Assembly: GCA_051313645.2 (NCBI GenBank)
Contig: JBNRSN020000030.1
Span: 27,342,001 to 27,406,000 of the forward strand
Length of the DNA stretch: 64,000 bases
Direction of reading: 5' to 3'
From: Centroscyllium fabricii
Lineage: Eukaryota
The stretch's first letter is position 1. Every line of letters begins with the position of its first letter. Of the stretch, positions 1,474 through 64,000 are shown piece by piece. The notes beneath the pieces are model-generated. The model was not told where the DNA came from. It was given only the letters and a program-made list of their open reading frames with translations, and searched no databases. A program made the translations under genes and the position numbers.

Positions 1474-1474
1474 G

Positions 1475-1487
1475 TGGTGACCCCGAC
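1475..1487 (+). promoter_or_regulatory. Primer-binding site complementary to tRNA-Trp 3' end
   Basis: TGGTGACCCCGAC lies 1 nt after the LTR and is the reverse complement of ...GTCGGGGTCA-CCA of vertebrate tRNA-Trp(CCA). Confidence 0.9.
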
Positions 1488-1564
1488 TTGGATCGTCTTC
1501 CAAGGAGAAAACAGCAGCTACAGGACTAAAAACCAAGCAGCCTCAGAACACTTTAAAAAGCAAC

Positions 1565-3510: not shown

Positions 3511-3974
3511 AACCGCTTCATCCCAGGAGCAGCCGCTCTCATGGCCCCCCTATACCAGGACACACACGGGCAGTCCGGCAAAACTGCAGTCGAGTGGATG
3601 GCCGACGCCGCCACCACCTTCACCACAACCAAAACCGCCCTGGCCAACGCCACCCTCCTAGCCCACCCCAGGCCCAATGCCCGAATGCCCCTCACCACTG
3701 ATGCCGCCGACCACGCTGTCGGGGCCGTCTTTGAACAGTGGACCGGCAACTCTTGGCAGCCCCCGGCCTTTTTCAGCCGGCAACTTCGGCCCCCAGAGTT
3801 TAAGTACAGCGCCTTCGACAGGGAGCTCCTCGCTGTCTACCTCGCAGTGCGCCATTTTCGCTTCCTCCTGGAGGGCCATCCCTTCAGAGCTTTCGTCGAT
3901 CACAAGCCGCTCATTTTTGCAATGGCTAAGATCACCGAACATGGTCGGCCAGGCAGCAGCGCCAACTCACAGCC
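3511..3974 (+). pseudogene. Gypsy RNase H region
   Basis: LTTDAADHAVGAV, YSAFDRELLAVYLAVRHFRFLLEG and FVDHKPL motifs; frameshift near 3945. Confidence 0.9.
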
Positions 3975-5369: not shown

Positions 5370-5408
5370 ACTCTTTCTCCTCTTGGACGGATTCTGGGGG
5401 GGGAGCTG

Positions 5409-5645
5409 TGTGACGGCACACCAAGACTGGCGAATCCGCCTCGGGAGTCTGTGGGGCATAGCCCCGCCCACCGGGTGACGCGATGACGTCACCAGGGCCT
5501 CTCGGCGTGATGAGGTCACTAAACAGGCCGTTTAAATAAGCCTGCTCCTCGTTGTTCAGTCTCTTTCTTGTCTAGTAATGTAATTAAACGAGTGTTTTCT
5601 GTCTCTCTGGCTCCTGTGTGGTTCTTGGGTCCCGCAAGCGCGACA
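5409..5645 (+). repeat. 3' LTR of Gypsy element (237 bp)
   Basis: TGTGACGGCACA...GCGCGACA, preceded by the polypurine tract. Confidence 0.95.
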
Positions 5646-5649
5646 ATAG

Positions 5650-6707
5650 AGCAATAGATTTCAAAAGCAAGGCAGTGATGCTAATCCGTTATACATCACT
5701 GGTTAGGGCTCAGCTGTTGGATTCTGGGAACAACATTTTAGGAGGATGTAATGGCAGAAAAGATTTACAAGCAGGTTTCGGGTGATGAGGGTCTTCAGTT
5801 ACTTGCTTAGACTGGAGAAGTTGTCGTTGTTCTCCTTAGAACAGAGAAGATTGGGAGGAGATCTGATAGAGTTCGTCAAATTCATGAGGGGTCTGGACAG
5901 GACAGTGTCCTATTCCCAGCGATCTTCAGCTGGTTCAGCAATGACCTTGCTTCCAAAATATTTCAGAAATCGGGATGCTCGCTGAAGACTGCACAGGAGG
6001 GAATGCAATGGAGGTCGTCGACATGGATGTTACTAAGGCATTTGACAAATTACCAAAGAGATGGCTGGTTAATAAAATTGAGTTTCATGGAATACATGGG
6101 TCAGTGGCAGTTTGACTGAGGAATTGGCTTAACGATAGAAAGCAGCGAGTTGTTGTAAATGGCTGTTATCCACACTAGATGATGGTAGACAGAGGTGTTC
6201 CCCAAGGGTCAGTGCTGGCGACCTGACTTTTGTATCATTTATAAATGGCCTGGATATTGGAATACCGAGTAAAATTTCTAAATATGCCGACTGCACCAAA
6301 CTTGGGGGTGTAACACACAGCGAGGATAATACCAATCGACTGCAGCAGGAAATAGAAATTTTAGCGTAATGGCAGACACGTGACAGATAGAATTTACTAC
6401 AGAGAAGTGTGAGGTGATGCATTTTGGCAGAAGAAACAGTTAGAGGCTATAATGATAATGTGATAGTTTTAAATATTGTGCATGGACAGATGTACCTGGG
6501 AGTTAATGTGCATCCGTCCTTGACCGAGTCAGGACATGTGGTTAACAAAATGCATGGGATATTGTTCTTCCTAAATAGAGGCATTGAGTACAAAATTATA
6601 GAAGTTATTCGGAATGTTTATAAAACACTGGTCACGTCCAACCAGATTTCTGCTTACAGATCTGGTCACCACATTTTAGGAAGGATGTGAAGGCCCGTAG
6701 AGGGTAC
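5650..6707 (+). mobile_element. Degenerate CR1 LINE fragments (continuation of the interrupted copy plus a second fragment)
   Basis: LEKLSLFSLEQRRLGGDLIE, KAFDK, GVPQGSVL and KYADCTKLGG-like motifs with many stops. Confidence 0.85.
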
Positions 6708-7254
6708 TCTAGTGGTTCAACTAGATGTAGTTGCGATCTAGCTTATCCAGCCAGCCAAACACTTATTCTAATAACTCCTCGAGAGACAGGTCGTGTCTGT
6801 TTTGAAGCTTTACTCGAATAAAATTGTGAAGCTGTAACAAAACAAAATATGTCCTTTGCATAAAGTTAATACTATATATTAGGTGCTATACAAGATGCAA
6901 CAAACATGTCTATGGAAACAAAAGACTGCATAATATAGATACATATATAACTTTAGAAATGAACAGCATTGAGGCCGATCGTTAACATCTGGCAGCTACG
7001 AAACTTCTTATTTACAAAGTATCAACATAATATAGTATGGACGATGTAGTTTGTATACTATTAAACAAGGATGCTCACAGACATTGTGTCTTGCCTAACA
7101 CAAGAAACGAGATGGCATCAGATTCTACAACCCTGGCTACGATGCTGGCTCTGGGTTTTAACACAGCAAACTACCTCCAAAACCACTTCCCGTTGCTGAC
7201 AGGTCGAAGGTCAAATGACACATTGCTTTACAAGACTGTCATTCGGGAGTACTA
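6708..7254 (-). mobile_element. Truncated copy of putative solo LTR
   Basis: Homologous to 12601-13186 and inserted after GGTAC at the same CR1 site; the right end was lost in a deletion. Confidence 0.65.
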
Positions 7255-7542
7255 TAAAAGGCAATCCAAGAGTCTTCTATAGGCAGATATTACCACGTTT
7301 AACGGCACTATGTCAGTGGCACAGTAAGTCGTGTGGATGGAAGCAGAAAATAGCAAATGGACAGAGATTCCGTGGGCAAAATCATAGGCAACTGATTCAG
7401 AAGATTCGGGTGATTTCGGAACTTCAATGAAATTGAAAGGAACATTTGTGACTTGCACAATTTGGGTCAAAGAGATGTAACTGATGGCAAATTAATAATC
7501 GTCCCCTTGATCTGATATTTCTGAAGACTGCGTGCAGCAGTT

Positions 7543-7615
7543 GTTTCCGCAGTGTAGTGGTTATCACGTTCGCTTTGCACGCGAAAGATCCCCGGTTCGA
7601 TCCCGGGCGGAAACA
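7543..7615 (+). tRNA. tRNA-Val-type body with TGC (Ala) anticodon; probable pseudogene
   Basis: GTTTCCGCAGTGTAGTGGTTATCACGTTCGC-TTTGCAC-GCGAAAGATCCCCGGTTCGATCCCGGGCGGAAACA. All stems pair, but U8 is C. T5 terminator at 7634-7638. Confidence 0.85.
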
Positions 7616-8951
7616 TTAAGTTCGAGAATATCGTTTTTGTGAAATAAATCTGAGATCGGATAGGTGATAAAACTTCATCAATTAATGCATTTTCATAAAT
7701 TATTAAGGTTACGTTATTGAAGTTTGGATAATCCCTCCGTGTGAACAGTTCTTTCATTTTAAAAAAACGCTATCGGTTAATGAATGGCGATTTAAAAAAT
7801 GTAGCCACTGAACTACCAGAAAACACTTTAAAGAGTTGATCACAATTCCTTCCATTTCTTATCTTTCGTCTTGTGTTTTTTCAGCGCTTGGTCCTTTTCA
7901 GCTCCTGACTGCGGAAATTCCTCTGAATCAACCTGAAAAAATGCAACATCTCGCAGCCGCGGCCTCGGTTAATACCAGCAGATCTAAGCCGCATTTCAGA
8001 CGCGGAGACAAACCCTTAATGACTCGGTTTGCACAGCACCAGAGCTCAGAGGGTCATTGTCCATCCCTAGGCTGCAAGATACCACGGACCCGGGCCACTC
8101 CTCCCCATCCACCGAGCACAGGCTCGGGAAATCCCCGGGAGAGATGATATCCCGGTCGCTGAGCCCTCGAGCAACATTGAACAAACACCCGGACTGAAAC
8201 ATTTTAAATGCGGAAGTGGGAACCTCCAAGGGCGCTCGCTGGCAGTCAGGAGGCGCTGCGTTTAGATCGAATTTCTTCTGGAAGCTTCGGTTCCAATCAC
8301 ATTGCTGAGATGGGAAAGAAATGGGAAGTGGGAATATTTGGATCGCCCTTTTCAATGAGCCGGCACAGGCACAAAGTCCGAATGGTCTCTTTCTGTGCTG
8401 TCTGATTCTAGGATTCTCTCATAAGTTGATAAAGTTTGTCTGTCATCCAGTAAACTTGTTAGCAAACCCTGCAGCGTGCAACACGGTATTGGGGGTTAAT
8501 TAGTGATGATTCAAACAATTATAAATGTCTCACAGATTTGAATGATCTTCTAATATCTTTGGTTAAAAAAATCTATCAATCGCAGATTAAAAATAATAAT
8601 TCCTGTCGCATCTTTGAAAGAGCTTTCCAATTAGTCCCACTCCGCTGCTCCTCCCCCATAGAGCTGCTGACACACCTGCCAGTGGAAACTGTTCCCCCAT
8701 AATTTGGAACAACTCTATAAGATCTCCCCTGAACAGCGATTCATGGAGTTCAACGTGGGCAAGTGTCAGATCATCCACTTTTGGTGTTAGTGACTATTTA
8801 TATTATGTCCTATTTATAACCGGTCCTGTTAGCAGTGCGTCAGCTCTGATATGAATGGGTTGCGAATCGTTTAACTCATCCTCTAAAAATCTCATACTGC
8901 TAAATTAAAATCACGGGTAAACTTTGTTTCGGTGTAAAAGAAAATGAAAAC

Positions 8952-9042
8952 AAAAACGCCAGACAGCGCCCGCGGTGAAACAGGGTTCGAACATAGAATT
9001 AAGTTCATGGTGCGAAGTAACCGCTGAGCTAAAGCTGACGTC
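8952..9042 (-). ncRNA. VTRNA: Vault RNA gene (single-copy module of the diverged unit)
   Basis: Minus strand: GACGTCAGCTTTAGCTCAGCGGTTACTTCGC...GTTCGAACC...CCGCGGGCGCTGTCTGGCGTTTTT. Matches the vertebrate vault 5' and 3' motifs, with terminal stem and T5 terminator. Confidence 0.9.
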
Positions 9043-9065
9043 AACCAATGTGCGAGAAACCGCTC

Positions 9066-9084
9066 AATATAAAGGATGAGCTCA
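9066..9084 (-). promoter_or_regulatory. Upstream TATA-like box and palindromic TGAGCTCA of the vault gene
   Basis: TTTATATT at about -24 to -31 and TGAGCTCA at about -35 to -42 from the predicted start; a similar TATA-like box precedes most other copies. Confidence 0.55.
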
Positions 9085-9576
9085 CAAATATCAGGGCCGG
9101 TGCAGTCTGGTCAAACTCAAGCCCCTCCTGTCTTGTTCAACAGAGGAACAAGAGACATGACCGGGAGTCAGACGACACAAACTGTAATTAAAGGCACAAA
9201 TACGAGTAACACTTACTTCCAAATCTTTTCACTGTTTTATAATTCCATCCAATTTTAAAGGTGATTGCGTTGAATCTGAAATTCAGCACAATGGGATTTT
9301 ATGTTTACGACCGATTCTACTTCCTGTAGAAATAGAAATAGCCGGTCTTGTTAAATTTGACCAAATTTCCCCAGGTTACTGGGGTCGTCAGCAATGCACA
9401 TGTTTAAACGAGACTCCTAAATTGCAGTTTGTAAAATGAGATATGGGCAACCGTACACATTACTGAAATGTCGCATCTCCCTCAGTTAGCATTATTTTCA
9501 TTGTGCAAAAGAGGATTATTGGTTAATTAATGATGCTTTCCCGTGAAAGCAACATAAACGTTTAACACAATGTTTT

Positions 9577-9649
9577 GGCCCAACATGGGGCTTGAAACAA
9601 CGAAGATGAAATTAAGAGTCTCACACTCTGCCGAATGAGCTCGCCGCGT
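9577..9649 (-). pseudogene. tRNA-Lys(CTT) pseudogene
   Basis: Plus strand GCCCAACATGGGGCTTGAA...ATTAAGAGTCTCA...CCGAATGAGCT matches the reverse complement of tRNA-Lys-CTT with many stem mismatches. Confidence 0.8.
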
Positions 9650-10334
9650 CTGATCACTTTGAACATCCTTGTCGTTGATTGCAGCCAGGCGTCTGCTAAC
9701 TCAGTTCCAGGTGTTCAACTTGTTCTGCAAACCACGAACCAGGTTCTCCAGAATTCAAAAGTGTGTAAAGAAATCAAGTATCAAAAGCCCTTCCATCAAC
9801 CACAGGGCTTCAGGCAATGTTCTGATCGCAAAGCGCAATTAGACTCAAAACTACGGCATCGTTCCAGCAATCTGAGAGGCAGAGTTCTCATCTTCAGTTT
9901 CTTCAGGTAATTCACTCCCCACGTCATCACCTTCTTTATTCAGGGCTATGTGTAGAACCAAGTGTCGAGAGAGTACAGGTGGGCTGGTAATATCAGCAAT
10001 TGTTCTAAACCCCAGTATATCCAGCTCTGTATTGATAGTTTTTGGGACAGGCTCCCGTTCTTCATGAATAATGACAGGTTCTGGTCTCGGAAACTTCTGC
10101 TTGTCAATATTTCTTGCCTATTTCGCGGTGTTTCCCGATTGTGTCTGTCTCTGTGGCTGAGTTTATTCCATGTGTGGCCACCTGCGGTTTGATTTTGAAC
10201 GAACACCTGTATTTGTGAATAGTAAAATTAAGTACATGACATTGGTGAAACAGTCAGAACGACTTTGTAGAAAGAATCAAGTTATTGTGAAAGAGCAAAG
10301 AAAATTATAACGCCGGGATTATCAAGTAGAATAA

Positions 10335-10406
10335 TGACCCCGGCGTGATTTGAACACGCAGCCTTCCGATTTGGAGTCAGACGCGCTACCGTCGCGCCAC
10401 GAGGCC
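10335..10406 (-). tRNA. tRNA-Trp(CCA), near-intact (A14G)
   Basis: GGCCTCGTGGCGCGACGGTAGCGCGTCTGACTCCAAATCGGAAGGCTGCGTGTTCAAATCACGCCGGGGTCA; all stems pair. Confidence 0.9.
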
Positions 10407-10784
10407 CTCAGGATAAGTCTGGATGTTTTTATATATGCAAGTTCCTCAAACACTGTTTCCTTCCTCCTGCCTTGGAGTAATTAAAGGCCATTAAAATCCC
10501 CGCCCACTCCCACCGGGTGACAGACAGCATCAGAAGCAGCGCTCACCTGTCACTCTCACCGTCTCCCGCCCGCTTTCACCACCTGCTGCCGGTGGACTGC
10601 AGCAAATCCAATTACCCGCACCGAGCCCCCACAATCATCACATCACAGGGAAATCAACAGGGAAACTGCTCAAAATACACAACAGGTCGAGCAAATTCTG
10701 AAAATCAATTAGACTTGCGGCGGGAAATAATATTCAGAACTGGCAGAAGGCGGTGTAAAAATATAAAGTGTGGGTGTGTGAGCC

Positions 10785-11010
10785 GAGGCCCGAAGCTCTG
10801 GAGTTCCCTCCCTGAACCTCTCCGCCTCTCTTTCCTCCTTTAAGACGCTCCTTAAAATCTACCACTTGGACCAAGCTTACGGTCACCTTTCCTAATATCT
10901 CCTTATGTGGCTCGGTGTCAAATTCTGTCTCAGAATCGCTCCTGTGAAGCGGCTTGGGAAGTTTTAATACTTAAAAGGCGCTAAATAAATGCAATTTGTT
11001 TTTGTTGTTG
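10785..11010 (+). mobile_element. L2-LINE / SacSINE-type 3' tail (copies near 21.36, 31.66, 42.03, 53.39 kb)
   Basis: CTCCTGTGAAGCGGCTTGGGA...AAAGGCGCTAAATAAATGCAA followed by a (TTG)n tail. Confidence 0.7.
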
Positions 11011-11109
11011 TGTATATGGGTGTGGTGTTTATATATAAATGGGTGTTTATAGAATAAGCACGATGCTGTGCTCGTGTGTTGATTGTAAATATTGGTGAAC
11101 GGATAATGT

Positions 11110-13900
11110 TCAGACTGGAGGGAAGTATACAGAGGTGTTCCCTGGAGCCGGTATTAGGACCGCTGCTACATTCGATATTTATTAATGACCTGGACTTGTG
11201 TATACTCGGCATAATTTCAAAGTTTGCAAATGGCAGGAAACTCAGAAATATATTAAATAATGACACGGAAAGTACCAGAATTCTTGAGGACAGCTACAGA
11301 GTAGGGAAATGGGCAGAGGAATAGCCGATGTAATTTAACACAGAGCAATGTGAAGTGATCCACATTTCGGGGGAAAATGAACTGAGGCAATATAAACGAA
11401 ATGATACAATTTTAAATCATGTGGAGGAACATTGAGGCCTAGATTTACCAAAGATTTCTCTGTTTTTGACGGCGGCGGGACAAGTTGAGAAGGCTTTTAA
11501 AAAGCACACAGGACACTTGGATTTATTAACAGCCCAATAGATTACAACAGCAAGGCAGTAATGCTAATCCGTTAGACATCACTGCTGAGGCCTCAGCTGG
11601 TGGATTCTGGGTGCAACATTTTAGGAAGGATGTAATGGCAGTAAAGATTTACAAGCAGGTTTCGAGGATGAGGGAGTTCAGTCACTTGGGTAGACTGCAG
11701 AAGTTGTCGTTGTTCTCCTTAGAACAGAGAAGATTCCGAGGAGATCTGATTGAGTTGGTCAAATTCATGAGGTGTCTACGCAGGGCATTGTCCTAGTCCC
11801 GACGATCTTTAGCTGAGTCAGCAATGACCTTGCTTCCACAATAATTTCAGAAATGGTGCTGTTCGCTTTAGACAGCACAGAAGGGAATGGAACTGCTGTT
11901 GACGAATTTGATTTTAGTGAGGCGTTTGACAAATTACCATGTAGACGGCTGGTTATCAAATTGAGGCTAGTGGAATAGCTGGGTCTGTGGCAGCTTGAAT
12001 ATGGAATTGACTTAAGGATTGACAACAGCGAGTTGTGGTAAATGGCTGTTTTTCACACGAGATGATAGTAGACAGTGGTGATATCCCCGTGTCAGTGCTG
12101 GTGCCATGACTGTTGTGATATTTTTAAATGGCGTGGATAATGGAATACATTGTATAGTTTCTGAATATGCCGACAGCAAAAAACGTGGTGGTGTAACGGA
12201 CAGTGAGGATAATACCAATCGACTGTAGCAGGACATCGAAAGAAGAGTGGAGTGGCACACAACTGGCAGATGGAATTTATTGCGGAGTAGTGTGAGGTGA
12301 TACATTTTGGCATAAGAGGCAGTGAGAAGCAATGTGCACATAATGGCACAGTTTTAAAGAGTGTGCGGGTCTAGATGAGCCGTGGAGATTGTGCATAGGT
12401 CCTTGAAGGTTGCAGTACATATGGAGGGAGTGGTTAACAAAACGTATGCTTTCCTGTGCTTCATATAGAGAGGTATTGAGCACAAAAATAGTGAAGTTAT
12501 TCTGCACATTTTTTTAAAACTGGTCTGGCCGCCACAGGATTTCTGCATCCAGATGTGGCCACCACACTTTAGGAAGGATGTGAAGGCGCTTAGAGGTTAC
12601 TGTACTGGTCTCAACTAGATGTAGTTGCTATCCAGCTTCACCAGCCAGATAAACACTTATTCAAATAAATCCTCGGGAGACAGGTCGTGTCTGCTTTGAA
12701 GATGTACTTGAGTAAAATTGTACAACTGTAACAATACAACATATCTTCTTTCCATAAAGGTTAATACTATACACACGATGCAAAAAATATGTCTATGAAA
12801 ACAGCATAGCCAGCTTAATAAAGATAAATGAGTAATTATAGAAATTAGCAGCATTGAGGCCGATCCTTTAAACCTGGCAGCTAGTAAGCATCTTAATTAC
12901 AAAGTATCAACAAAATATAGTGGACGCTGTAGGTTGTATACTATTAAACAAGGATACTCACATACATTGCGTGTTGCCTAACACAAGAAACGAGATGGCA
13001 TTAGATTACAGAAGTCTGTCGACCATGCTGGCTCCGGCTGACAACACAGCAAACTACCTCCAGAACGACTTCCTGTTGCTGACAGGTCGAAGGTCAAAGG
13101 ACACATTGCTTTAGAAGACTGACATTGGGAGTACTACCAACATTTACAACTCGAGGGCGCTGTCGGCATGTTACAGGTCCGGTAAAGGTACAGTGGAGAT
13201 TTACCAGAATGATCGCTGTCATCGGGGATCTTAGCTACAAGGACAGGCTGGAGAAGCTGCATTTGTTTTCATTGCAACACCAACTTGTATTTACATAGCG
13301 ACTTTGACAAAACGAAACGACCCAAGGTGCGGTACATGAGTATTTTAAGACCAAGGAGCTTATGGGGTGATTCGATAGAGGTGTACTAAATTATGATAAG
13401 TTCAGACAGGCTAGATGGGGAAAAGCAGGTCCGACGAGTTAATATTAAAATAACATGGGGAAACAGATTTATAGTATTGGGTAAGAGGTACAGGGGGGCG
13501 TTAGGAAACAAAACTACGCAACGAGTGGCGAGGACCTGGAATTCACTGCCCACTGAAGTGGGGGAAACGAAGACACTCATTGTTTTCAAGTGGATAATGG
13601 AGAGGCACTGGAGGGAAACAACATTCCCGGGCTAGGAGGATAGAGCGGGGGATGGGACTGGCTGGATTGCTCTACAAAACTCCAGCACCGACTCGATGCC
13701 GGTATGGCTCTTTGACTATGAACTATAGAGTAGGGATAATGGGAGCATTCAACTATCCTAATATAGATGAGAATAAGACTAAATATAGAAAGTCCAGAGG
13801 AGAAGGGAAAAGCATAATTAGAAGGTCAAAGAGAGAGTTTGACAATAGAATTGCAGGTAACGTAAAATGCAATGCAAAAGTCTTCTATACGCATATATTA
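11110..13900 (+). mobile_element. Array of degenerate CR1 fragments containing the solo LTR
   Basis: LGPLLHSIFINDLD, LFSLEQRRFRGDLIE and RVARTWNSLP motifs plus CR1 3'UTR-like sequence. Confidence 0.8.
12601..13186 (-). mobile_element. Putative solo LTR (~586 bp) with 5-bp TSD
   Basis: Ends TGTACTGG...CCGGTAAA (decayed TG...CA inverted termini), flanked by GTTAC/GGTAC; the empty site in other units is GAGGGTACAGTGGAGAT. Orientation is inferred from an AGTAAA poly(A)-like signal in the 6.8-kb copy. Confidence 0.7.
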
Positions 13901-14173
13901 CCACGTTTAACGGCACCAAGTAAGTGGCACAGTAAGTCGTGTGGATGGGAGCAGAAAATTGCAAAGGGACATAGATTGAGTGGGCAAAATCAGAGGCATC
14001 TGATTCAGAAGATTCGGGAGATTTCGAGACTTTAATGAAATTGAAAGGAAGATTTTTGACTTGTGCAGTTTGGGTCAGAGAGATGTTAGTGATGGCAAAT
14101 TAATCCAGAATCTGCGATTCAGAATTTCATTTTCTCCCTTAACAGATGTTTTTGCAGGCAGCGTAAACCAATG

Positions 14174-14236
14174 GGTTCCGTAGTGTAGCGGTTATCAGGA
14201 CGCGAAAGATCCCCGGTTAGATCCCGGGCGGAAACA
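14174..14236 (+). pseudogene. tRNA-Val pseudogene with anticodon-arm deletion
   Basis: GGTTCCGTAGTGTAGCGGTTATCAGGACGCGAAAG...CCGGGCGGAAACA; ~10 nt including the anticodon are missing and the B box is mutated. Confidence 0.85.
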
Positions 14237-15254
14237 TTATGTTCGAGAGCATTATTTGTGTTAAATAAATTCATAAGCAGTTTCTAAGATCAGAGAGGTG
14301 ATAAAACTTCATCAATTATTCAGTTTTTGCAAATTTTTAAAGTTACGTTATTGAAGTTTGGATAATCCCTCAGTGTGAGCTTTTCTTTCATTCTGCAAAA
14401 ACGCTGTCGGTTAATGAATTGCGATTAAAACAATTAAGCCACTAAACTACCAGACAAGATATTAAAGAGTTGATCACAATTCCTTCCATTTCTTATCTTT
14501 CGTCTTATCTATTTCAGCGCTTGGGCCTATTCAGCTGCTGACTGCGGAAATTCCTGTGAATACACGTGAAAAAATGCAACATCTCGCAGCCGCGGCTTTG
14601 GTTAATACCAGCAGATCTGGGCCGCATTTCAGACGCGGAGACAAACCCGTTAAATACTCGCTCTTACACAAGACCAGAGCTCAGAGTGTAATTGTCCATC
14701 ACTGGGCTGCAAGATACCACGGACCCGGGTCAAATCACTCCATAAACCGAGCACAGGGTCGGGAAATCCCCGGGGGAGATACTATCCCGGTCACTGAGCC
14801 TTCGAGCAGCAGTGAACAAGCACCCGGTCTGAAACATTTCAAATGAGGAACTGAGAACTTGCAAATAAGTTTACTAGCAGTCAGGGTGGCCGAGCCTTTT
14901 AAGCCGCTGCGTTTAAATCACAATCGCTTCTGGAAGCTTGGGTGCCAATCCCAATTATGACCATCTCTATATTTAATTACAAGGTGCAGTTCATTTGTTT
15001 TGACAGCCATTGTGAAGATCTTTGGGACATCCCTCTAAAGTGGTTTTCAGCGGTTCACCTGCTCGCTGGACATTTCCATCAGATCTGGTAGTGAAATTCT
15101 CGAGTTTTCCGCAGCTGTGCGAATTGCTCAGTTGGACACTTCGCAGAGAGGCAACTGGGGAAGCTGAAGTTACCAATGAGACCAGGCCGAGTCAAGATAA
15201 ATGAAGCAGACGTCAATGTTGTTGATTTTGGGAAAGGAGCTAATTTTTCGCGTC

Positions 15255-15326
15255 GGTTCCATGGTGTAATGGTGAGCACTCTAGACTCTGAATCCAGCGA
15301 TCTGAGTTCAAATCTCGGTGGAACCT
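15255..15326 (+). tRNA. tRNA-Gln(CTG), one anticodon-stem mismatch
   Basis: GGTTCCATGGTGTAATGGTGAGCACTCTAGACTCTGAATCCAGCGATCTGAGTTCAAATCTCGGTGGAACCT followed by T4. Confidence 0.88.
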
Positions 15327-15589
15327 AATTTTAGTCAATTTGTTTCCCGGTAAATCCAGACGCGTTTTAATATTTGTGCACAGCTCGATTTTAGATGATG
15401 ACTTTCCAAATTTCTCCAGTCACCTAAGTTGTTGCTGCAATTCATGGTCCTGTAGTTCATAATCTGGCTCTTTGCTCAAATACATGTGTGATTTTGCCGG
15501 AGATAGTTCCTTCTGCAGTTGAAAGGTTGCATATTTTCCTGCGTCACACCATGCGTCCCAATGAACTGGAGTCAGATAAATTGCAAAAA

Positions 15590-15755
15590 CAAACCGCTGC
15601 AAATGTTAGGAACTGGAAATAAAAAAGAAACTGTTGGCTATTCTCGGCAGTTCAGGCAGCATCTGCGGAGAGAGAAACCGGATTAAAGCTTCAGGTCTGT
15701 TACATTTCTGTTTCTCTCTCCACAAATATTGCCGAACTTGTTGAGTATTTGCAAG
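15590..15755. repeat. Short hairpin-forming repeat between the two Gln genes (copies near 25.9, 36.2, 46.6, 58.0 kb)
   Basis: GGCAGCATCTGCGGAGAGAGAAAC is followed by its imperfect inverse GTTTCTCTCTCCACAAAT..TGCC; resembles a common elasmobranch non-autonomous repeat. Confidence 0.65.
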
Positions 15756-15832
15756 AATATCACAAAATGTTCAAGTGGCTGACATTTGTGGGAGACTGGA
15801 CAAATCATAGTGCGCTCACTCCATTGCAAGTG

Positions 15833-15904
15833 GGTTCTATGGTGTAATGGTGAGCACTCCGGATTTTGAATCGAGCGATTCGAATTCAAATTTCGGTGAA
15901 ACCA
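15833..15904 (+). pseudogene. tRNA-Gln(TTG) pseudogene
   Basis: GGTTCTATGGTGTAATGGTGAGCAC...; multiple stem mismatches. Confidence 0.85.
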
Positions 15905-16139
15905 GCAATCTTGTGCTTTCAGTTGCTGGAAATTTGATACGCTCAAGATAAAGGCACCTAGATGCCAACCACGGTTATTGGACCGTAAGTTGCCGAAATC
16001 AATTGCTTACTTTTCTTGAAAACACGTCACAGGCTCAACCTCCCATTCCCAGTTCCATATGAGCGGTGGAGAAAGATACGTGTTGTCCAGCGCTTCGTGT
16101 GACTGTACAGCAGATTGCTCATCGTTTTATTTGCAAGCC

Positions 16140-16690
16140 TGACGTATCGTCAATTATGGCACAAAGACAAATAGATACCTCAACTAAAGGCTTTTGTTAA
16201 CTATTGAATGGAGTGTGTCTCAGCTGAGCTCGGGTCTGTACTGACTGGGGATGGTAGGCAATTACCTATACACCTCGACTCAGGGGAGGTGTCAGAGGTG
16301 GGTCAGCTGAGGCAGGCTCCTGCATACCGATATCTACATATGTAACAGTGGTGCATTATGGTACCGTTACAGTGGTACAATACAGTGGTGGAATACAGGT
16401 TTACCATATTCACCCCTTCTTTATAAATGAGTCCGGCGGGATGAACATGCGCTATTTAGCATTCTGTGATCAGTCTCTCGGGTGGCTGTGTCTGCCTGAG
16501 GGACCGACGGGGTGCCGGTGATGGTGGTCCTGCTCGCGGGGTCGGGGTCGTTTCGTCAGCCAGTGGTGGCAGCGGTGCGATATCCGAACTCTGGTTGTCG
16601 GCCGTTGATGTCGAGGGCCACGTCTGTGTGTGTATGGGGGCCAGTGTTCGGTGGGTGGTGGCTGGTGGAGCTGAGGCCCAACTGGGGGTT
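16140..16690 (-). mobile_element. 3' remnant of a second Gypsy-like element: integrase tail, PPT and 3' LTR (16140-16408); copies start at 26433, 36784, 47115, 58516
   Basis: Minus-strand ORF ends PRRSLRQTRPPERLIT, then PPT AAAGAAGGGGTGAA. The LTR starts T(A/G)TGGTAAACC, carries AATAAAAGCC in the 26.5 and 36.8 kb copies, and ends ...GATACGTCA. Confidence 0.72.
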
Positions 16691-17900
16691 CGTTGTTCAC
16701 CTTAGAACAAAGAAGATTGCGAGGAGATCTGATGGAATTCTTCAAATTCATAAATGCTCTATGCAGGGCCGTGTTCTCCTCCCAACGACCTTCAGCTGGT
16801 TCAGCAATGACCTTGCTTCCAAAATAATGACAAAACTGGTGATGTCCGCTTAAGATTGCACAGAAGGGAATCCAACGGATGTTGTCGACAAGAATTTTAA
16901 TAAGGCGTTTGACAAATTACCACAATTTACCACATAGAAGTCTGGCAAACAAAACTGAGACTCATGGAATAGGTGGGTCAGTGACAGCTTGAATATGGAA
17001 TTGGCGTAATAATGGAAAACAGCGAGTTGTGGTAAATGGCGGTTTATCACACTCGATGATGGTAGACAGTGTTGTTCCCAAATTGTCAGCGCTGGTGTCT
17101 TGACTTTTGTGATATTTAAAAGTGGCCTGGATATTGGAATACAGAGTAGAATTTGTACATATGTCGACAGCACCAAACCTGGGGGGGTGTCACACAGTGA
17201 GGATAATACCAATGGGTTGCAGCATGTCGTAGAAAGGCTCGCGGAATGGCAGACAATGTGCAGATGGAATTTACTGCAGAGTAGTGTGAGATGATGCATT
17301 TTGTCAGAGGAAACAGTGAGAGGCAATATACACATAATGGCATAGTTTTAAAGAGTGTGCAGGGACAGATGTACCTGGGGATTTTCGTGCATAGGTCATT
17401 GAAGGTGGCAGGACATTTGGAGAGAGCGGTTAACAAAACCTAAGGGATATTGGTCTTCATAAATAGCGGTATTGTGTACAAAAGTAGAGAAGTTATTCTG
17501 AACATTTATAAGCACAGGTCAGGCCGCAACTAGATTACTGCATCCAGATCTGATCCCCACACTTTTGTGAAGATGTGCAGACCCTCAGAGAGTACAGTGG
17601 AGATTTACCAGAATAATCGCTATGATGGGGGAGCTTAGCTTCAAGGACAGGCTGGAGTATCTGCATGTGTTTTCATTGCCACATCAACTTTTATTTATAT
17701 AGCGCCTTTAATAAAATAAACGTCCCAAGGTGCGGTACAGGAGCATTTTAAGACAATGGAGCTTATTTAATAGAGGTTTGCTACATTCTGATGAGTTTGG
17801 ATAGGCTAGCCGGGGAAATGCAGATCCCAGTAGTTGATATTAAAAGTACATGGGGCACAGATTTAAGGTATTGGGCAAGAGGTACAGGGGGGACGTTAGG
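16690..17900 (+). mobile_element. Degenerate CR1 fragments (repeated in each unit near 27.0, 37.35, 48.7, 60.1 kb)
   Basis: KAFDK, YVDSTKPGG and WQMEFTTEKCEMMHF motifs; homologous to the other CR1 pieces. Confidence 0.8.
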
Positions 17901-18311
17901 AAACTTTTTTTACTTTTCCATCAGCCCTGTGTTGAAAGTGGAGACTTTTCCCAAGTCTAGCAGCTATCACGTTGGCGCGATGATTTTGTTGGAAATTGCA
18001 TGTCGTGTGGCGAATTTCTCCAATGCTAAAATGTTTTTCATTTTGCAAAAGTAAGTTATTGGTTCACTGTTGGTTATTAAATACATTCTCATTTTATCAC
18101 GTCAGATGCTTGCTGTTAATTGATACAATTACCGCACATTAATTGAATTAAAACGGTGAGACCTAATAAATTCCATAACAGGGAAGCGGATCCGGGCGTC
18201 AGTTCTGATATGAATGGGTTGCGAATCGTTTAAAGTTGCCCTCTAAATATATCACACTGGTAAATTAAAATCAGGGGTACAATTTGTGTCGGTGTAAAAG
18301 AAAATGAAAAT

Positions 18312-18402
18312 AAAAACGCCAGACAGCGCCCGCGTTGCGACAGAGCTCGAACTTACAATGAAGTTGATGCTGTGAAGTAACCGCTGAGCTAAAGCTGACG
18401 TC
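18312..18402 (-). ncRNA. VTRNA: Vault RNA gene, unit 1 copy a
   Basis: Vault 5' motif intact, 3' CGCGGGCGCTGTCTGGCG and T5. Confidence 0.88.
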
Positions 18403-18936
18403 GATCAGCGAGCGAGAAACCGTTCAATCTAAAGGATGAGCTCACAAATATCAGGGCCAGTGCAGTCTGGTCAGACTCAAGACCCTCCTTTCTTACTCAA
18501 CAGAGGAACAAGAGACATGAGCGGGATTCAGACGACACAAACTTTAATTAAAGGCACAAATACGAGTAACACTTACTTCCAAATCTTTTCACTGTAAAAT
18601 AATTTCACCCGAATTTAAAGCTGATTGCGTTGAATGTGAAATTCAGCACAATGGGATTTTATGTTCACAACCGATTCTATTTTCTGTACCAATAGAAATA
18701 GCTGTTCCTGTTAAATTTGACCAAAGTTGCCCAGATTCCAGGTATCATCAGCAATGGACATGTTTAAACGAGACTCCTAAAGTACAGTTTGTAAAATGAG
18801 ATATGAGCAACAGTACAAATTACTGAAATGTCGAATCTCCCTCAGTTAGCATTTCTTTCGTTCTGCAAAAGAAGATTATTGGTTAATTAATTATGCTTTC
18901 CCGTGAAAGCAACATTAAAGTTTAAAAAAATGCTTT

Positions 18937-19009
18937 CGCCCAATATGGGGCTGGAAACAACGAACATGACATTAAGAGTCTCACACTCTGCCGACTGAGC
19001 TCGCCGGGT
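18937..19009 (-). pseudogene. tRNA-Lys(CTT) pseudogene, copy a
   Basis: CGCCCAATATGGGGCTGGAA...ATTAAGAGTCTCA...CCGACTGAGCTCGCCGGG; B box broken. Confidence 0.8.
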
Positions 19010-19258
19010 CTGACCACTTTGAACGGGTTTGTCGCTGTTTGCAGCCAGGCGTCTGCTAACTCAGTTCCAGATGTTTAACTTGTTCCGCAAACCAGGAAAC
19101 AGGTGATATCAAATCAATTCCAAAACAGGGAATCAACCCGGGAGTCATTTCTGATTTGAATGGGTTTCGAAATGTTTAAGGCTGTATTCTAAGAATATCA
19201 CACTGCTGAATTAAAATCACGGGTACAATATTGTTTCGGTCTAAAAGAAAATGAAAAT

Positions 19259-19349
19259 AAAAATGCCAGACAGCGCCCACGGTGTGACAGCGTCCGAACA
19301 TACGATGAAGTTGATGCTGTGAAGTAACCGCTGAGCTAAAGCTGACGTC
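19259..19349 (-). ncRNA. VTRNA: Vault RNA gene, unit 1 copy b (B box mutated)
   Basis: 5' motif intact; GTTCGGAC B box; several CpG-type changes in the 3' motif; T5. Confidence 0.82.
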
Positions 19350-19878
19350 GATCAGCGAGGGAGAAACCGCTCAATATAAAGGATGAGCTCACAAATATCA
19401 GGGCCAGTGCAGTCTGGTCAAACTCAGGAACCTCCTTTATTACTCAACAGAGGAAGAAGTGACTTGAACGGGGGTCAGACGCCACAAACTTTAATTAATG
19501 GCACAAAGAGTAACACATACAGCCAAATGTTTTCACTGTAAAATCATCTCACTCTATTTCAAAGCACATTGCGTTGAATCTGAAGTTCAGCACAGTGGGA
19601 TTTTATGTTCACTTCCGATTATATTTTCTGTAAAAGTAGAAATAACAGGTCCAGTTAAATTTGACCAAAGATGCCCAGATTCCTGGTGTTATCAGCAATG
19701 CACATTGTTAAACCAGACTCCTGAGTTACAGTGTGTAAAATGAGATAAGATAAGAGGACAAGTTATTGAACTCTCGTTCCTCACTGAGTTTGTATTTATT
19801 TCATTGTGCAATAGAATAATATTTTTAATTAATGATGCTTTCCCGTGAAAGTTACATAAAATGTTAACAAAATGCTTT

Positions 19879-19951
19879 CGGCCAACGTGGGGCTCGAACC
19901 AACGAAACAGAAATTAAGTATCACACACTCTGCCGCCTGAACCCACCGGGT
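19879..19951 (-). pseudogene. tRNA-Lys-derived pseudogene, copy b
   Basis: CGGCCAACGTGGGGCTCGAACC matches the Lys-CTT 3' half; the 5' half is degraded. Confidence 0.75.
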
Positions 19952-20158
19952 CTGACTAATTTGAACTTCTTCGTCGCTGTTTTTAGCCAGGCACCTGGCG
20001 GCTCGGCGCGAAGTGTTTAACCTGCTCTGCAAACCACGACCCAGATTCTCCTGAATTACACGGTTTGCAAGGAAATCAAGTATCAAAAGCCCCTTCATTA
20101 ATCGCAGGGCTTCAGGCAATGCCCTCATCGCAAAGCGCTTTCAGACAGCAAACTACGG

Positions 20159-20420
20159 CAGTCCAAAGATGTGCGGGTTAAGTTGATTGGCCAGGATAAA
20201 TTGACCCTTAGTGTTAGAGGGATTGAATATGTGGGGTTACGGGGATTGGGTGGAATATGTGTCGGTGCAGGCTCGATAGGGATCGAGTGATATGGGGACA
20301 AGGCAGGTACAGGGTACTGGGTTTGGATGATCAGCCATGATCTCATTGAATGGCGGATCAGGCTCGAATGGCCGATTGGCCTACTCCTGCTCCTATCTTC
20401 TATGTTTCTATGTTTCTATC
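20159..20420 (+). mobile_element. 5'-truncated HE1 SINE with (TTTCTATG)n tail (copies at ~30469, 40823, 52182, 63573)
   Basis: CAGTCCAAAGATGTGCGGGTT...GATCAGCCATGATCTCATTGAATGGCGG...CTATGTTTCTATG; absent at the homologous site ~9858. Confidence 0.85.
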
Positions 20421-20915
20421 TATCCAGCAATCTGAGAGGCAGAGTTCTCATCTTCAGTTTCTTCAGGTAATCCACTCCCCACGTAATTACCTTCATTATT
20501 AGGGGCTATGGGTAGAACCAAGTCTTGAGAGAGGACAGGTGGTCTGGTAATATCAGCAATCTTTATAAACCCCATATGTCCTGCTCTGTGTCGATAGTTT
20601 TTTGGGACAGGCTCCAGTTCGTCATCAATAATGAGAGGTTCTGGACTCGGAAACTTCTGCTTGTCAATAACTCTTGCCTATTTCACGGTGTTTCCCGATT
20701 CTGTCTGTCACTCTGGGTCTGTTTATTCTATGTGTGTCCACCTGCAGGTTGATTTTGAGCGAACACCTGTATTTGTGAATAGCAAAATTAAATACGAGTG
20801 CATGAGGCGCTTCTCTCCCTGACATTGGGGAACAGTGAGAACCACTTTAGAGAAAGAATCTGTTTGTTGTGAACAGCAAAGAAAATTCTAACTCCGTGAT
20901 TATCGAGTATAATAA

Positions 20916-20987
20916 TGATACCGACGTGATTTGAACATGAAGCCTTCTGATCTGGAGCCAGACCCGCTACCGTTGCGCCACGATGCC
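20916..20987 (-). pseudogene. tRNA-Trp(CCA) degenerate copy
   Basis: Trp body with mismatches in the D, T and acceptor stems. Confidence 0.85.
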
Positions 20988-21689
20988 CACAGCATCACTA
21001 TGCATGTTTTTTATTTGCACGTTCCTCAAACACAGTTTCCATCCTCCTGCCTTGGAGTAATTAAAACCTTTAAAATCTCCACCCACTGACACCGGGTGTC
21101 AGACAGCATCAGAATCAGCGCTCACCTGTCACTCATCGTCTCCCGCCCACTTTCACCTCCTGCTGCCGGCGGACTGCAGCAAATCCAATTACCCGCACCG
21201 AGCCCGCACAATCATCGCATCACAGGGAAATACACTGGGAAACTGCTCAAAATACACAACAGGTCGAGCAGCTTCTGAAAAACTATTAAACTTGCGGCGG
21301 GAAACAATATTCAGAACTGGCAGAAGGCGGTGTAAAAATATAAAGTGTGGGTGTGTGAGCCCGAGGCCCGAAGCTCTGGAGTTCCCTCCCTGAACCTCTC
21401 CGCATCTCTTTCCTCCTTTAAGACGCTCCTTAAAATCTACAACTTAGACCCAGCTTTCGCTCACCTGTCCTAATATCTCCTTATGTGGCTCGGTGTCAAA
21501 TTCTGTCTGAGAATGGAGCCAGTGAAACGGATTTGGACGTGTTAATACTTTAAAGGCGCTATATAAATACAAGGTGTTTTTGTTGTTGTATATATGGGTG
21601 CAGCGTTTATATATAAATGGATGTTTATAGATTGAGCACGATGATGTGCTTGTGTGTTAATGTAAATATTGGTGAACGGTTACATTTCA

Positions 21690-59580: not shown

Positions 59581-61722
59581 AAGGCTTTTAGTAACTATAT
59601 TAATGGAGTGTGTCCAGCTGAGCTCGGGTCTGTACTGACTGGGGGATGGTAGGCAATTACCTGTAAACCTCGACTCAGCGGAGGTGTCAGATGTGGGTCA
59701 GCTGAGGCAGGCTCCTGCATACCGATATCTACATATGTACAGTGGTGCATTATGGTACCGTTACAGTGGTACAATACAGTGGTGGAATACAGGTTTACCA
59801 CATTAACCCCTTCTTTAAAAATGAGTCCGGCGGGATGAACATGCGCTAACACAGTTGGCAATTTAACATTGTGTGATCAGTCTCTCGGGTGGCCGTGTCT
59901 GCCTGAGGGACCGACGGGGTGCTGGTGATGGTGGTCCTGCTCGCTGGGTCGGGGTCATCTCGTCAGCCAGTGGTGGCAGTGGTGCGATGTCCGACCTCTG
60001 GTTGTCGGCTGTTGATGTCGAGGGCCCCGGTGTGTGTGTGTATGGGGGCCAGTGTTCGGTGGGTGGTGGCTGGTGGAGCTGAGGCTCAACCGGGGGTTCG
60101 TTGTTCACCTTAGAACAGAGAAGATTGCGAGGAGATCAGATGGAGTTCTTCAAATTCATGAGGGGTCTATGCAGGGCCGTGTCCTCCTCCCAACGACCTT
60201 CAGCTGGTTCAGCAATGACCTTGCTTCCAAAATAATTACAAAACTGGTGATGTCCGCTTAAGATTGCACCGAAGGGAATGCAATGGATGTTGTCGACAAG
60301 GATTTTAATAAGGCGTTTGACAAATTACCACAAATTACCACATAGAAGTCTGGCTAACAAAACTGAGACACATGGAATAGGTGGGTCAGTGGCAGCTTGA
60401 TTACGGAAATTGGCTTAAGAATAGAAAACAGCGAGTTGTGGTTAATGACGGTTTATCGCACTCGATGATGGTAGACAGTGTTGTTCTCAAATTGTCAGTG
60501 CTGGTGTCATGACTTTCGTGATATATATAAGTGGCCTGGATATTGGAATACAGAGTATAATTTATAAATATGTCGACAGCCCCAAACTTGGGGGTGTATC
60601 ACACAGTGAGGATAATACCAATCGACTGCAGCAGGTCACAGAAAGGCTCGCGGAATGGTAGACACTTGGCAGATGGAATTTACTACAGAGAAGTGTGAGA
60701 TGATGAATTTTGTCAGAAGAAACAGTGAGAGGCAACATACACATAATGGAACCGTTTTAAAGAGTGTGCAGGGACAGATGTACCTGGGAGGTTTTGTGCA
60801 TAGGTCCTTGAAGGTGGCAGGACATTTGGAGAGAGCGGTTAACAAAACTTAAGGGATCTTGGTCTTCATAAATAGCGGTATTGTGTACAAAAGCAGAGAA
60901 GTTATACTGAACCTTTATAAGCACAGGTCAGGCCGCAACTAGATTACTGCTTCCAGATCTGCTCCCCACACTTTAGGAAGGATGTGAAGGACCTCAGAGG
61001 GTACAGTGAAGATTTACCAGAATAATCGCTGTGATGGGGTATCTTAGATACAAGGACAGGCTGAGTATCTGCATATGTTTTCATTACCACATCAACTTGT
61101 ATTTACATAGCGCCTTTAACAATATAAACGTCCCAAGGCGCGGCACAGGATTATTTTAAGACAAAGGAGCTTATTTGATAGAGGTTTGCTACATTATGAT
61201 GAGTTTGGATAGGCTAGCCGGGGAAATGCCGGTCCCACTAGTTGATAATAAAAGAACATGGGACCCAGATTTAAGGTATTGGGCAAGAGGTACAGGGGGG
61301 AAGTTAGGAAAACTTGTTTTACATTTCCATCAGCCCTGTGTTGAAAGTGGACATTTTTCCCAAGTCTAGCAGCTATCACGTTGGCGCGATGCTTTTGTTG
61401 GAACTTGCATGTCGTGTGGCGAGTTTACTCCAATGCGAAAATGTGTTTCATTTTGCAAATGTAAGTTATTGGTTCACTGTTGGTTATTAAATCAATTCTC
61501 ATTTTATCACGTCAGATGCTTCCTGTTAACTTGATACAATTACTGCACATTAATTGACTAAAAACGGTGAGACCTAATAAATTCCATAACAGGGAAGCGG
61601 ATCCGGGCGTCAGTTCTGATATGAATGGGTTGCGAATCGTTTAAAGTTGCCCTCTAAATATATCGCACTGCTAAATTAAAATCACGGGTACAATTTGTGT
61701 CGGTGTAAAAGAAAATGAAAAT

Positions 61723-61813
61723 AAAAACGCCTGACAGCGCCCGCGTTGCGACAGGGCTCGAACATAGAATTAAGTTGATGCTGGGAAGTAACCGTTGAGC
61801 TAAAGCTGACGTC
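61723..61813 (-). ncRNA. VTRNA: Vault RNA gene, unit 5 copy a (A-box substitution)
   Basis: TAGCTCAACGGTTACTTC; otherwise as 50333. Confidence 0.84.
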
Positions 61814-62346
61814 GATCAGCGATTGAGAAACCGCTCAATATAAAGAATGAGCTCACAAATATCAGGGCCAGTGCAGTCTGGTCAACTCAAGCCCCTCCTT
61901 TCTTACTCAACAGAGGAACAAGAGACATGAGCGGGAGTCAGACGACACAAACTGTAATTAAAGGCACAAATACGACTAACACTTACTTCCAAATCTTTTC
62001 ACTGTAAAATAATTTCACCCGAATTTAAAACTGAATTCGTTCAATCTGAAATTCAGCACAATGGGATATTATGTTCACAACCGATTCAATTTTCTCTACA
62101 AATAGAAATAGCTGTTCCTGTTAAATTTGTCCAAAGTTGCCCAGATTCCAGGTATCATCAGCAATGCACATCTTTAAACGAGACTTCTAAATTACAGTTT
62201 GTAAAATGAGATATGGGCCAAAGTACAAATGATTGAAATGTCGAATCTCCCTCAGTTAGCATTTCTTTCATTGTGCAAAAGAAGATTATTGGTTAATTAA
62301 TGTTGCTTTCCCGTGAAAGCAACATTAAAGTTTAACAAAATGCTTT

Positions 62347-62419
62347 CGCCCAATATGGGGCTGGAAACAACGAACATGACATTAAGAGTCTCACACTCTG
62401 CCGACTGAGCTCGCCGGGT
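62347..62419 (-). pseudogene. tRNA-Lys(CTT) pseudogene, copy a
   Basis: Homologous to 18937. Confidence 0.78.
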
Positions 62420-62669
62420 CTGACCTCTTTGAACGTCTTTGTCGCTGGTTGCAGCCAGGCGTCTGCTAACTCAGTTCCAGATGTTTAACTTGTTCCGCAA
62501 ACCAAAAACCAGGTGATATCAAATTAATTCCCTAACAGGGAATCGAACCCGGGAGTCATTTCTGATATGAATGGGTTTCGAAATGTTTAAGGTTGTATTC
62601 TAAGAATATCACACTGCTGAACTAAAATCACGGGTACAATATTGTTTCGGTCTAAAAGAAAATGAAAAT

Positions 62670-62760
62670 ATAAACGTCAGACAGCGCCCGCGGTGCGACA
62701 GGGTTCGAACTTACAATGAAGTTGATGCTGTGAAGTAACCGCTGAGCTAAAGCTGACGTC
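62670..62760 (-). ncRNA. VTRNA: Vault RNA gene, unit 5 copy b
   Basis: 5' motif intact, AGTTCGAACC, CCGCGGGCGCTGTCTGACG (fully Watson-Crick terminal stem with CGTCAG). Confidence 0.88.
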
Positions 62761-63292
62761 GATCAACAAGCGAAAAACCGCTCAATATAAAGGATGAGCT
62801 GACAAATATCAGGGCCAGTGCAGTCTGGTCAAACTCAAGACCCTCCTTTCTTACTCAACAGAGGAACCAGTGACATGAACGGGGGCCAGACGCCACAAAC
62901 TTTAATTAATGGCACAAATACGAGTAACACATACAGCCAAATGTTTTCACTGTAAAATTATCTCACTCTATTTCAAAGCTGATTGCGTTGAATCTGAAGT
63001 TCAGCGCAGTGTGATTATATATTCACTTCCGATTCTATTTTCTGTAAAAGTAGAAATAATAGGTCCAGTTAAATTTGACCAAAAATGCCCAGATTCCTGG
63101 TGTCATCAGCAATGCACATTGTTAAACCAGACTCCTGAGTTACAGTGTGTAAAATGAGATATGATCAGAGTACAGGTTATTGACCTCTCGTTCCTCACTG
63201 AGTTTGTATTTATTTCATTGTGCAATAGGATAATATTTTTAATTAATGATGCTTTCCCGTGAAAGTTACATAAAAGGTTAACACAATGCTTT

Positions 63293-63365
63293 CGGCCAAC
63301 GTGGGGTTCGAACCAACGAAACTGAAATTAAGTGCCACACACTCTGCCGCCTGAACCCACCGGGT
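63293..63365 (-). pseudogene. tRNA-Lys-derived pseudogene, copy b
   Basis: Homologous to 19879. Confidence 0.72.
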
Positions 63366-64000
63366 CTGACTAATTTGAACTTCTTCGTCGCTGTTTGTAC
63401 CCAGGCACCTGGCGGCTCCGCGCGAAGTGTTTAACCTGCTCTGCAAACCACGACCCAGATTCTCCTGAATCACACGGTGTGTACGGAAATCAAGTATCAA
63501 AAGCCCCTTCATTAATCGCAGGGCTTCAGGCAATGTCCTCATCGCAAAGCGCTTTCAGACAGCAAACTACGGCAGTCCAATGATGTGCTGGTTAAGTTGA
63601 TTGGCCTAGGATAAATTGACCCTTAGTGTTAGAGGGATTGAATATGTGGGGTTACGGGGATAGGGTGGGATATGTGTCGGTGCAGGCTCGATAGGGATCG
63701 AGTGATATGGGGACAAGGCAGGTACAGGGTGCTGGGTTTGGATGATCAGCCATGATCTCATTGAATGGCGGAGCAGGCTCGAATGGCCGATTGGCCTACT
63801 CCTGCTCCTATCTTCTATGTTTCTATGTTTCTATCTATCCAGCAATCTGAGAGGCAGAGTTCTCATCTTCAGTTTCTTCAGGTAATCCACTCCCCACGTA
63901 ATTACCTTCTTTATTAGGGGCTATGGGTAGAACCAAGTCTTGAGAGAGGACAGGTGGTCTGGTAATATCAGCAATCTTTATAAACCCCATATATGCTCCT

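Follow-up and report, generated by a model that had tools for sequence, protein, structure and literature searches.

The window analysed here is a stretch of 64,000 nucleotides of the Centroscyllium fabricii genome (C823:27342001-27406000 of a 7.21-Gb assembly of one genome), in which vault RNA genes lie inside a tandem repeat of tRNA genes. All eleven minus-strand elements that an initial annotation had proposed as vault RNA genes were present where it had placed them, and their identity was borne out by full-model matches to the Rfam family RF00006 in 11/11 (42.1 to 66.2 bits versus a gathering score of 34). A 20-mer from the 5' end, searched with up to 3 mismatches, gave 11 matches in the window and 0 in 100 shuffles. 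The proposed length of 91 nt is correct, because a G stands before the Rfam start in 113/113 of the array copies sampled below. In an alignment of the eleven window copies the gene was free of indels, and the conserved stretch extended ~120 bases upstream of it.

The highest score was obtained for the gene at 8952..9042 (66.2 bits, fold z -2.23), which belongs to an older, diverged unit; that at 18312..18402 scored 52.6 bits. The proposed B box was present as GTTCG in 11/11 copies, but the full GTTCGA in only 9/11, with GTTCGG at 19259..19349 (48.3 bits) and GTTCGC at 38973..39063 (45.3 bits). At least four T residues (T4), the expected RNA polymerase III (Pol III) terminator, directly follow the 3' end in 7/11; at 29571..29661 (54.9 bits), 39920..40010 (62.4 bits), 51280..51370 (53.4 bits, with one inner-stem pair also broken) and 62670..62760 (61.4 bits, z -2.62), the first T4 starts 6 nt later. 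Pairing of the ends was likewise true of part of the set. Seven of the 11 copies folded better than shuffles (z -1.4 to -2.6), but the remaining four, at 28624..28714 (48.8 bits, z +1.37), 38973, 50333..50423 (48.8 bits) and 61723..61813 (42.1 bits, with an A-box change as well), have changes in both stems and folded no better than shuffles (z +0.2 to +1.4). Across the 144 copies sampled from the genome, an A box was found in 129, GTTCG in 126, the stricter GTTCGA[AG] in only 59, and T4 at the 3' end in 131; both stems of the consensus structure were intact in 91 of 113 copies.

A conserved block at -60..-22, with the palindrome TGAGCTCA and TTTATAT, precedes every vault copy in the window (for example 9063..9101, minus strand). 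TTTATAT is TATA-like, and the palindrome, which resembles the cAMP response element (CRE), may be the counterpart of the mammalian CRE-like element, by resemblance only.

The proposal that the vault genes were amplified together with a tRNA-gene repeat was supported by self-BLAST and tRNA calls, which placed vault genes beside tRNA-Trp and tRNA-Gln genes in tandem units. The macro-repeat occupies 13875..64000, with units starting near 13875, 24206, 34515, 44846 and 56247, the last of which runs past the window end; the periods are 10312, 10349, 11360 and 11390 bp and the units are 94-98% identical. Two of the periods are longer because a non-LTR (long terminal repeat) retrotransposon 3' fragment at 47164..48180 (plus strand, ~5-bp target duplication) recurs in the next unit at 58565-59581. 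Its presence in successive units therefore indicates stepwise duplication and marks the duplication order. The 329-aa open frame of the fragment matched no Pfam family, and its nearest Atlas clusters are reverse-transcriptase-like. At 5645..13874 an older and rearranged unit from the macro-repeat family, sharing ~80-88% identity with the other units, holds the 8952 copy. Tandem Repeats Finder returned 0 rows for the window, periods above 500 being out of its range.

Each unit contains two vault modules of 947 bp, a single tRNA-Trp, a pair of tRNA-Gln genes, and Leu and Val-type genes that are damaged. Its vault genes stand 947 bp apart, in an internal duplication that is 81-83% identical (example pair of modules at 28461..30354, minus strand). 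Upstream of the vault gene each module carries a presumed tRNA-Lys-like relic, and downstream of it a presumed Glu/Asp-like one, both labels being our own by resemblance. From Rfam and tRNA calls, tRNA-Trp(CCA) was located once per unit on the minus strand (31214..31285, also 10335, 20916, 41579 and 52939) and the tRNA-Gln pair once per unit on the plus strand (35896..36549, also 15255/15833, 25587/26126, 46227/46808 and 57628/58209). The tRNA-Leu-like gene, one per unit, has a damaged T loop (14880..14962, plus strand). A tRNA-Val-type body with a TGC anticodon, labelled Ala by ARAGORN, lies at 7542..7616 (plus strand), and other units contain decayed Val-type copies. Over the whole family, the 0.95-kb module sits inside units of 9-17 kb.

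The array runs off the window, and the expectation of a higher total copy number was confirmed by a genome search, in which, with up to 2 mismatches allowed, a gene 24-mer matched 196 places (control 0), 115 of them exactly. A promoter 24-mer had 191 matches and a flank 24-mer 171, each at up to 2 mismatches and with controls of 0. The three counts are similar, and nearly every module therefore carries promoter and gene. Only 30 of the 171 flank matches were exact; one subfamily variant dominates them, so that this 24-mer is a poor neutral control. Among 100 of the 196 matches listed, 95 lie on C823 (45.7 Mb), 3 on scaffold C710, and 1 each on C1 and C711, and the C710 copies belong to the same repeat family as the window. 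The C823 matches listed fall at 24.4 Mb (one) and at 27.2-27.4 and 36.9-39.9 Mb (all others), and further matches stretched the array extent to 40.25 Mb. Locally, the array stops ~11 kb right of the window, after two further copies, and reaches at least 140 kb to its left, at least to C823:27.20 Mb. In a 164-kb contiguous block around the window, chosen independently of the vault sequence, the gene was present in 18/19 modules.

The arrays flank a histone cluster on C823: of 150 scored histone matches, 38 fall between them, at 28.5-35.4 Mb. Histone genes form at least four clusters in the assembly (C823 28.5-35.4 Mb; C446 72.3-76.1 Mb; C1044 141.0-141.8 Mb; C811 46.5-46.9 Mb). A tandem run of 10 tRNA-Gln-type genes with ~600-670 bp spacing was observed at C823:36.50 Mb, and 11 of 12 spot samples held no tRNA. 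At C823:37.16 Mb a vault copy is interrupted after ~27 nt by a long interspersed element (LINE), and at C823:24.38 Mb a copy is separated from its promoter by a ~1.7 kb insertion.

Conservation was measured in 144 array copies of the ~196 (113 + 31). The 113 were taken from contiguous blocks or through matches that were exact or top-scoring, and were what remained of 116 hits after removal of two orphans and a paralog on C723. The 31 extra copies, with an exact promoter and a mutated gene start, were added to offset the bias of exact-match selection. In the allele and subfamily analyses, 10% of alignment cells were masked as non-homologous. The gene had no indels in 113/113 copies, and 110 distinct gene sequences were found in the 144.

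Conservation was block-wise: it was strong in the promoter and 5' end and weaker in the 3' stem. Divergence among the consensus sequences of 6-9 subfamilies was 13-14% (flank), 9-11% (loop), 3-5% (3' stem), 0.9-1.7% (promoter) and 1.1-1.5% (first 29 nt). In the 164-kb block, the first 28 nt carried 2 changes, where the slowest flank predicts ~16 (Poisson P 1.3e-5). Over all 144 copies, the 5' end changed at 0.38 of the flank rate, and 0/429 windows were as low; the loop changed somewhat faster than the flanks. Alleles found in 1-2 copies occurred at 0.76 per site in the promoter and 5' end (flanks 0.76), whereas alleles with at least 8 copies numbered 1 in the promoter and 0 in the 5' end versus 0.25 per site in the flanks. 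The counts of rare versus common (at least 8 copies) alleles in the 144 copies were 22:0 for the 5' end, 29:1 for the promoter and 367:122 for the flank (Fisher p 0.004 each). Rare alleles are thus everywhere and common ones are spared in the promoter and 5' end; therefore single copies drift, and lasting lineages descend from intact genes.

The tRNA genes of the same units behaved differently in a rough comparison, in which the Trp and Gln genes of vault units changed at 1.2-2.1 times the flank rate. Gene-versus-flank ratios were 0.3 for the damaged Leu gene and 0.1 for the vault gene, with the Leu and Val groups mixing flanks. The Leu, Lys and Glu/Asp-type tRNA genes of the unit are relics. 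Judged from these sequence comparisons, no Pol III element of the unit is as well preserved as the vault promoter and 5' end, and the vault gene appears to be more than a passenger.

Two observations are indirect signs of transcription. The 19 bases upstream of the gene start were the most variable of all, with 8.6 changes per site versus a flank median of 4.5, and 0/449 windows were as high. According to the portion of PMC6130373 consulted, active tRNA genes have a mutation peak 10-15 bases upstream. Two promoterless orphans, on C1 and C711, align with the gene only between its positions -3 and 88 and between 1 and 92, respectively; their transcript length, as expected of copies made from RNA, suggests past transcription.

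A divergent 95-nt vault gene was found as a single copy at C723:64875-64969 (minus strand; L008:4876-4970), near the contig end. Its upstream region is unlike the array type, and a LINE, which we take to be CR1-like, follows it directly. It folds stably, and inspection by eye showed paired changes in its stems relative to the array type. The first 210 kb of its contig gave no cadherin match, and no further Rfam match was obtained in the 150 kb scanned. The arrays are not protocadherin-linked, as 0/55 assembly matches of PF08266 (protocadherin) lie on C823. No protocadherin cluster was found in the assembly with PF15974 (0 matches), PF16492 (1) and PF08266 (55, as single long genes and dispersed fragments), so that an additional vault gene at the canonical locus may exist. 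The IK gene lies on a 7.9-Mb scaffold, C1011, and no vault gene was found in the 100 kb sampled around it. The vault protein MVP had one genome match (MVP shoulder), on C225, near the contig start. The placement of IK and MVP suggests that some gene-rich regions are fragmented in the assembly. The TROVE domain was found at two loci, which could be TEP1 or RO60. Some 60 scattered fragments on many contigs (e.g. L002:1402-1767), mostly 75-92% identical, encode a signal peptide and first cadherin domain of the clustered protocadherin type; they are possibly a gene piece carried by a transposon.

The sequence data show that a vault module within a tRNA repeat was multiplied to ~200 copies by duplication of DNA. 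The explanation that we favour, and hold to be reasonably probable, is that these true vault RNA genes, lying at a tRNA/histone supercluster, evolve by birth and death, with a subset transcribed now or recently. A vault gene would have come into the tRNA-gene repeat at the supercluster, after which unequal crossing-over and tandem and block duplication would have multiplied the 0.95-kb module within its 9-17 kb units. Pol III would make a ~90-nt panhandle RNA from a putative composite promoter consisting of the upstream palindrome, the TATA-like box and the internal A and B boxes. Single copies would mutate freely, many turning into pseudogenes, and the founders of long-lived subfamilies would have had an intact promoter and 5' end; from this last point we infer that a subset is, or recently was, transcribed and is kept by selection or by conversion from active copies. 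The vault RNA would bind vault particles via TEP1 or act outside them. That its binding to vaults depends on TEP1 is stated in the part of PMC7904556 consulted.

A number of results weigh against this explanation. The sampled copies are related and were partly picked by exact matches, so that the p values are optimistic. With other thresholds the allele test gave p 0.007 (at least 5 copies) and p 0.07-0.09 (at least 3 copies), and the 3' stem passed it only at 8 or more. It was the addition of the 31 mutated copies that raised the 5' rate to 0.38 of the flank, and in the 144 copies the 3' stem looked neutral (4.45 versus 4.55 for the flank). No compensatory changes were found inside the arrays (0/18 pairs), and stems are altered in the four window genes named above. 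The largest subfamily (75 of 144 copies) has the B box GTTCGG and so is without the B-box A; A box, GTTCGA, T4 and TATA occur together in only 42/144 copies, or 96/144 with the looser GTTCG. The upstream excess of changes was not significant in the unbiased 164-kb block (38/559 windows), and it sits partly on CpG sites, with no clear C>T/G>A bias. The C1 and C711 orphans have neither target-site duplications nor poly(A) tails. A protocadherin-linked vault locus was not located in the assembly.

An alternative is that a formerly active vault gene was passively swept up in the amplification of the tRNA repeat. The arrays would then be mostly silent pseudogenes, the C723 gene or a gene missing from the assembly would supply the RNA, and the conserved blocks would be traces of earlier selection or of gene conversion. 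Private mutations reach the same density in the promoter and 5' end (0.76 per site) as in the flanks (0.64-0.82), the most numerous subfamily is without the B-box A, the tRNA genes nearby are in decay, a LINE splits one copy, another is severed from its promoter, and a stably folding single-copy paralog is present. We nevertheless consider passive amplification rather unlikely. The roughly tenfold lower promoter and 5'-end divergence, between subfamilies that are 13-14% apart, needs constraint over the entire history of the arrays. Conversion alone would not spare the promoter and 5' end yet skip the 20 bases between them, and the Trp and Gln genes in vault units have no such protection.

A more far-reaching reading is that vault RNA is here a 5S-like, high-dose Pol III product of the germline or early embryo, made by ~200 genes in a tRNA/histone supercluster, off the protocadherin locus and with their own upstream promoter, beside a single somatic-type paralog and one MVP gene. 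We regard this as unlikely; if it were true, most of the RNA's action would lie outside vault particles, and the part that matters could be read off the selection map, in which the promoter and first 29 nt are fixed and the loop is free. Frogs have oocyte-type 5S and tRNA repeats. By analogy, the arrays could have been selected for dosage as a high-output, probably germline or oocyte-type set, with the C723 gene as the somatic type and RNA far in excess of vault particles working outside them, which is quite unlikely. Consistent with it are the ~200 RNA genes versus one MVP match, the two sequence classes (the array type, and the single 95-nt type with its different upstream region), the adjoining histone cluster, and the requirement that heritable signs of transcription, here the upstream mutation peak and the transcript-length orphans, must arise in the germline. 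Recent block duplications, on the other hand, also copied mutated genes (alleles in 5-7 copies), and no vault-specific need is required, since, according to the portion consulted of bioRxiv 10.1101/2025.06.08.657570, a general expansion of tRNA loci in sharks and rays goes hand in hand with genome size.

That the copies are a vault-derived short interspersed element (SINE) spread by retroposition, as two orphans matching only the transcript span might indicate, or an artefact of assembly, to which tandem arrays are prone, is very improbable, given that array copies have hundreds to thousands of flank bases in common, that 110 of the gene sequences are distinct, that an insertion was inherited by two successive units, and that, for each of four short-read runs (from at most 2 samples of 1 study, and possibly those behind the assembly), the contigs put 314-385 variant pieces on the module. 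The SINE reading was rejected on the long shared flanks and on there being only 2 orphans in 116 fetched hits, without duplications or tails.

Other features were observed in the window. An LTR retrotransposon at 1238-5645 has 238-bp terminal repeats that are 93% identical, with reverse transcriptase and integrase domains in separate frames, and a relative of it lies at L008/L027 (L008 being the C723 piece). A tRNA-derived SINE, presumably of the V-SINE/HE1 type, is present at 34153-34507 and at the matching sites of every unit, having been duplicated along with the repeat. The V-SINE-like and CR1-like repeats, like the tRNA-plus-histone layout, are in keeping with the elasmobranch origin put forward in the initial annotation. 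Anticodons have drifted in some array tRNAs, with Gln bodies reading TTA (e.g. window 46808-46879) and a Trp body reading TCA, which ARAGORN labelled SeC (selenocysteine). Such drift was also seen at L153:6187 and 8681 (L153 being the C823:36.50 Mb piece) and at L063:8401, and it could raise suppressor and selenocysteine tRNA counts in automated scans.

Vertebrate vault RNAs are usually encoded by few genes, classically beside the protocadherin cluster, and a 2009 survey, 'Evolution of vault RNAs', reportedly described small lineage-specific clusters near the protocadherin locus. Tandem repeats of Pol III genes with stage-specific expression are familiar from 5S arrays and the Xenopus oocyte-type tRNA repeat, which the present arrays resemble in their multi-kilobase unit, with several Pol III genes and relics, and in their amplification at the DNA level; we know of no vault RNA in those 5S and oocyte-type units. 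In the sections of PMC7058938 consulted, one to four validated vault genes are given per species, four expressed paralogues and two annotated pseudogenes for human, and, cited from 2009, just over 100 candidate genes across all deuterostomes surveyed. According to the part of PMC4378963 consulted, the vault loci in Rfam number 9 for human and 2 for chicken. Like mammalian VTRNA1/VTRNA2, as far as these are covered in those same sections of PMC7058938, which describe a composite promoter for rat and human vault genes, the genes here have a full RF00006 match, A and B boxes, paired ends and a T-run terminator; their upstream palindrome and TATA-like box look like the upstream elements of that promoter. 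Unlike the mammalian VTRNA loci, the ~196 array genes are set in tRNA repeats next to a histone cluster, and C823 had no protocadherin match.

The Squalomix preprint (bioRxiv 10.1101/2025.06.08.657570), in the part consulted, describes for sharks and rays an expansion of tRNA loci and a cluster of tRNA and histone genes. The arrangement on C823 resembles the supercluster on red stingray chromosome 28 as presented there, in that a small chromosome carries a large region rich in tRNA genes together with a histone cluster; here the histone matches fall at 28.5-35.4 Mb between the arrays and the tRNA-Gln run at 36.5 Mb. The word 'vault' occurs 0 times in the main text of that account. No vault RNA array was found in a literature search of mostly titles and abstract openings, with the 2009 survey and its contents beyond its scope. 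The RNA is an ordinary RF00006 member and, set against these accounts, it is the genomic arrangement that is new; these loci may, however, be listed already, with no remark on them, in automated Rfam annotation of genomes of this kind.

Were the arrays silent, they would be a modest case of repeat-driven amplification. The size, place and selection pattern of the expansion would surprise a specialist, with the general expansion of Pol III genes in such genomes tempering its weight. What vault RNA does has long been an open question, and known copies of its gene amount to a handful. The ~200 copies, with 110 distinct sequences in 144, amount to a natural mutational scan within one genome, in which a constrained promoter and 5' end stand against a free loop. 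Vault RNA is also added to the contents of an ancient tRNA/histone supercluster, and its gene can leave protocadherin linkage.

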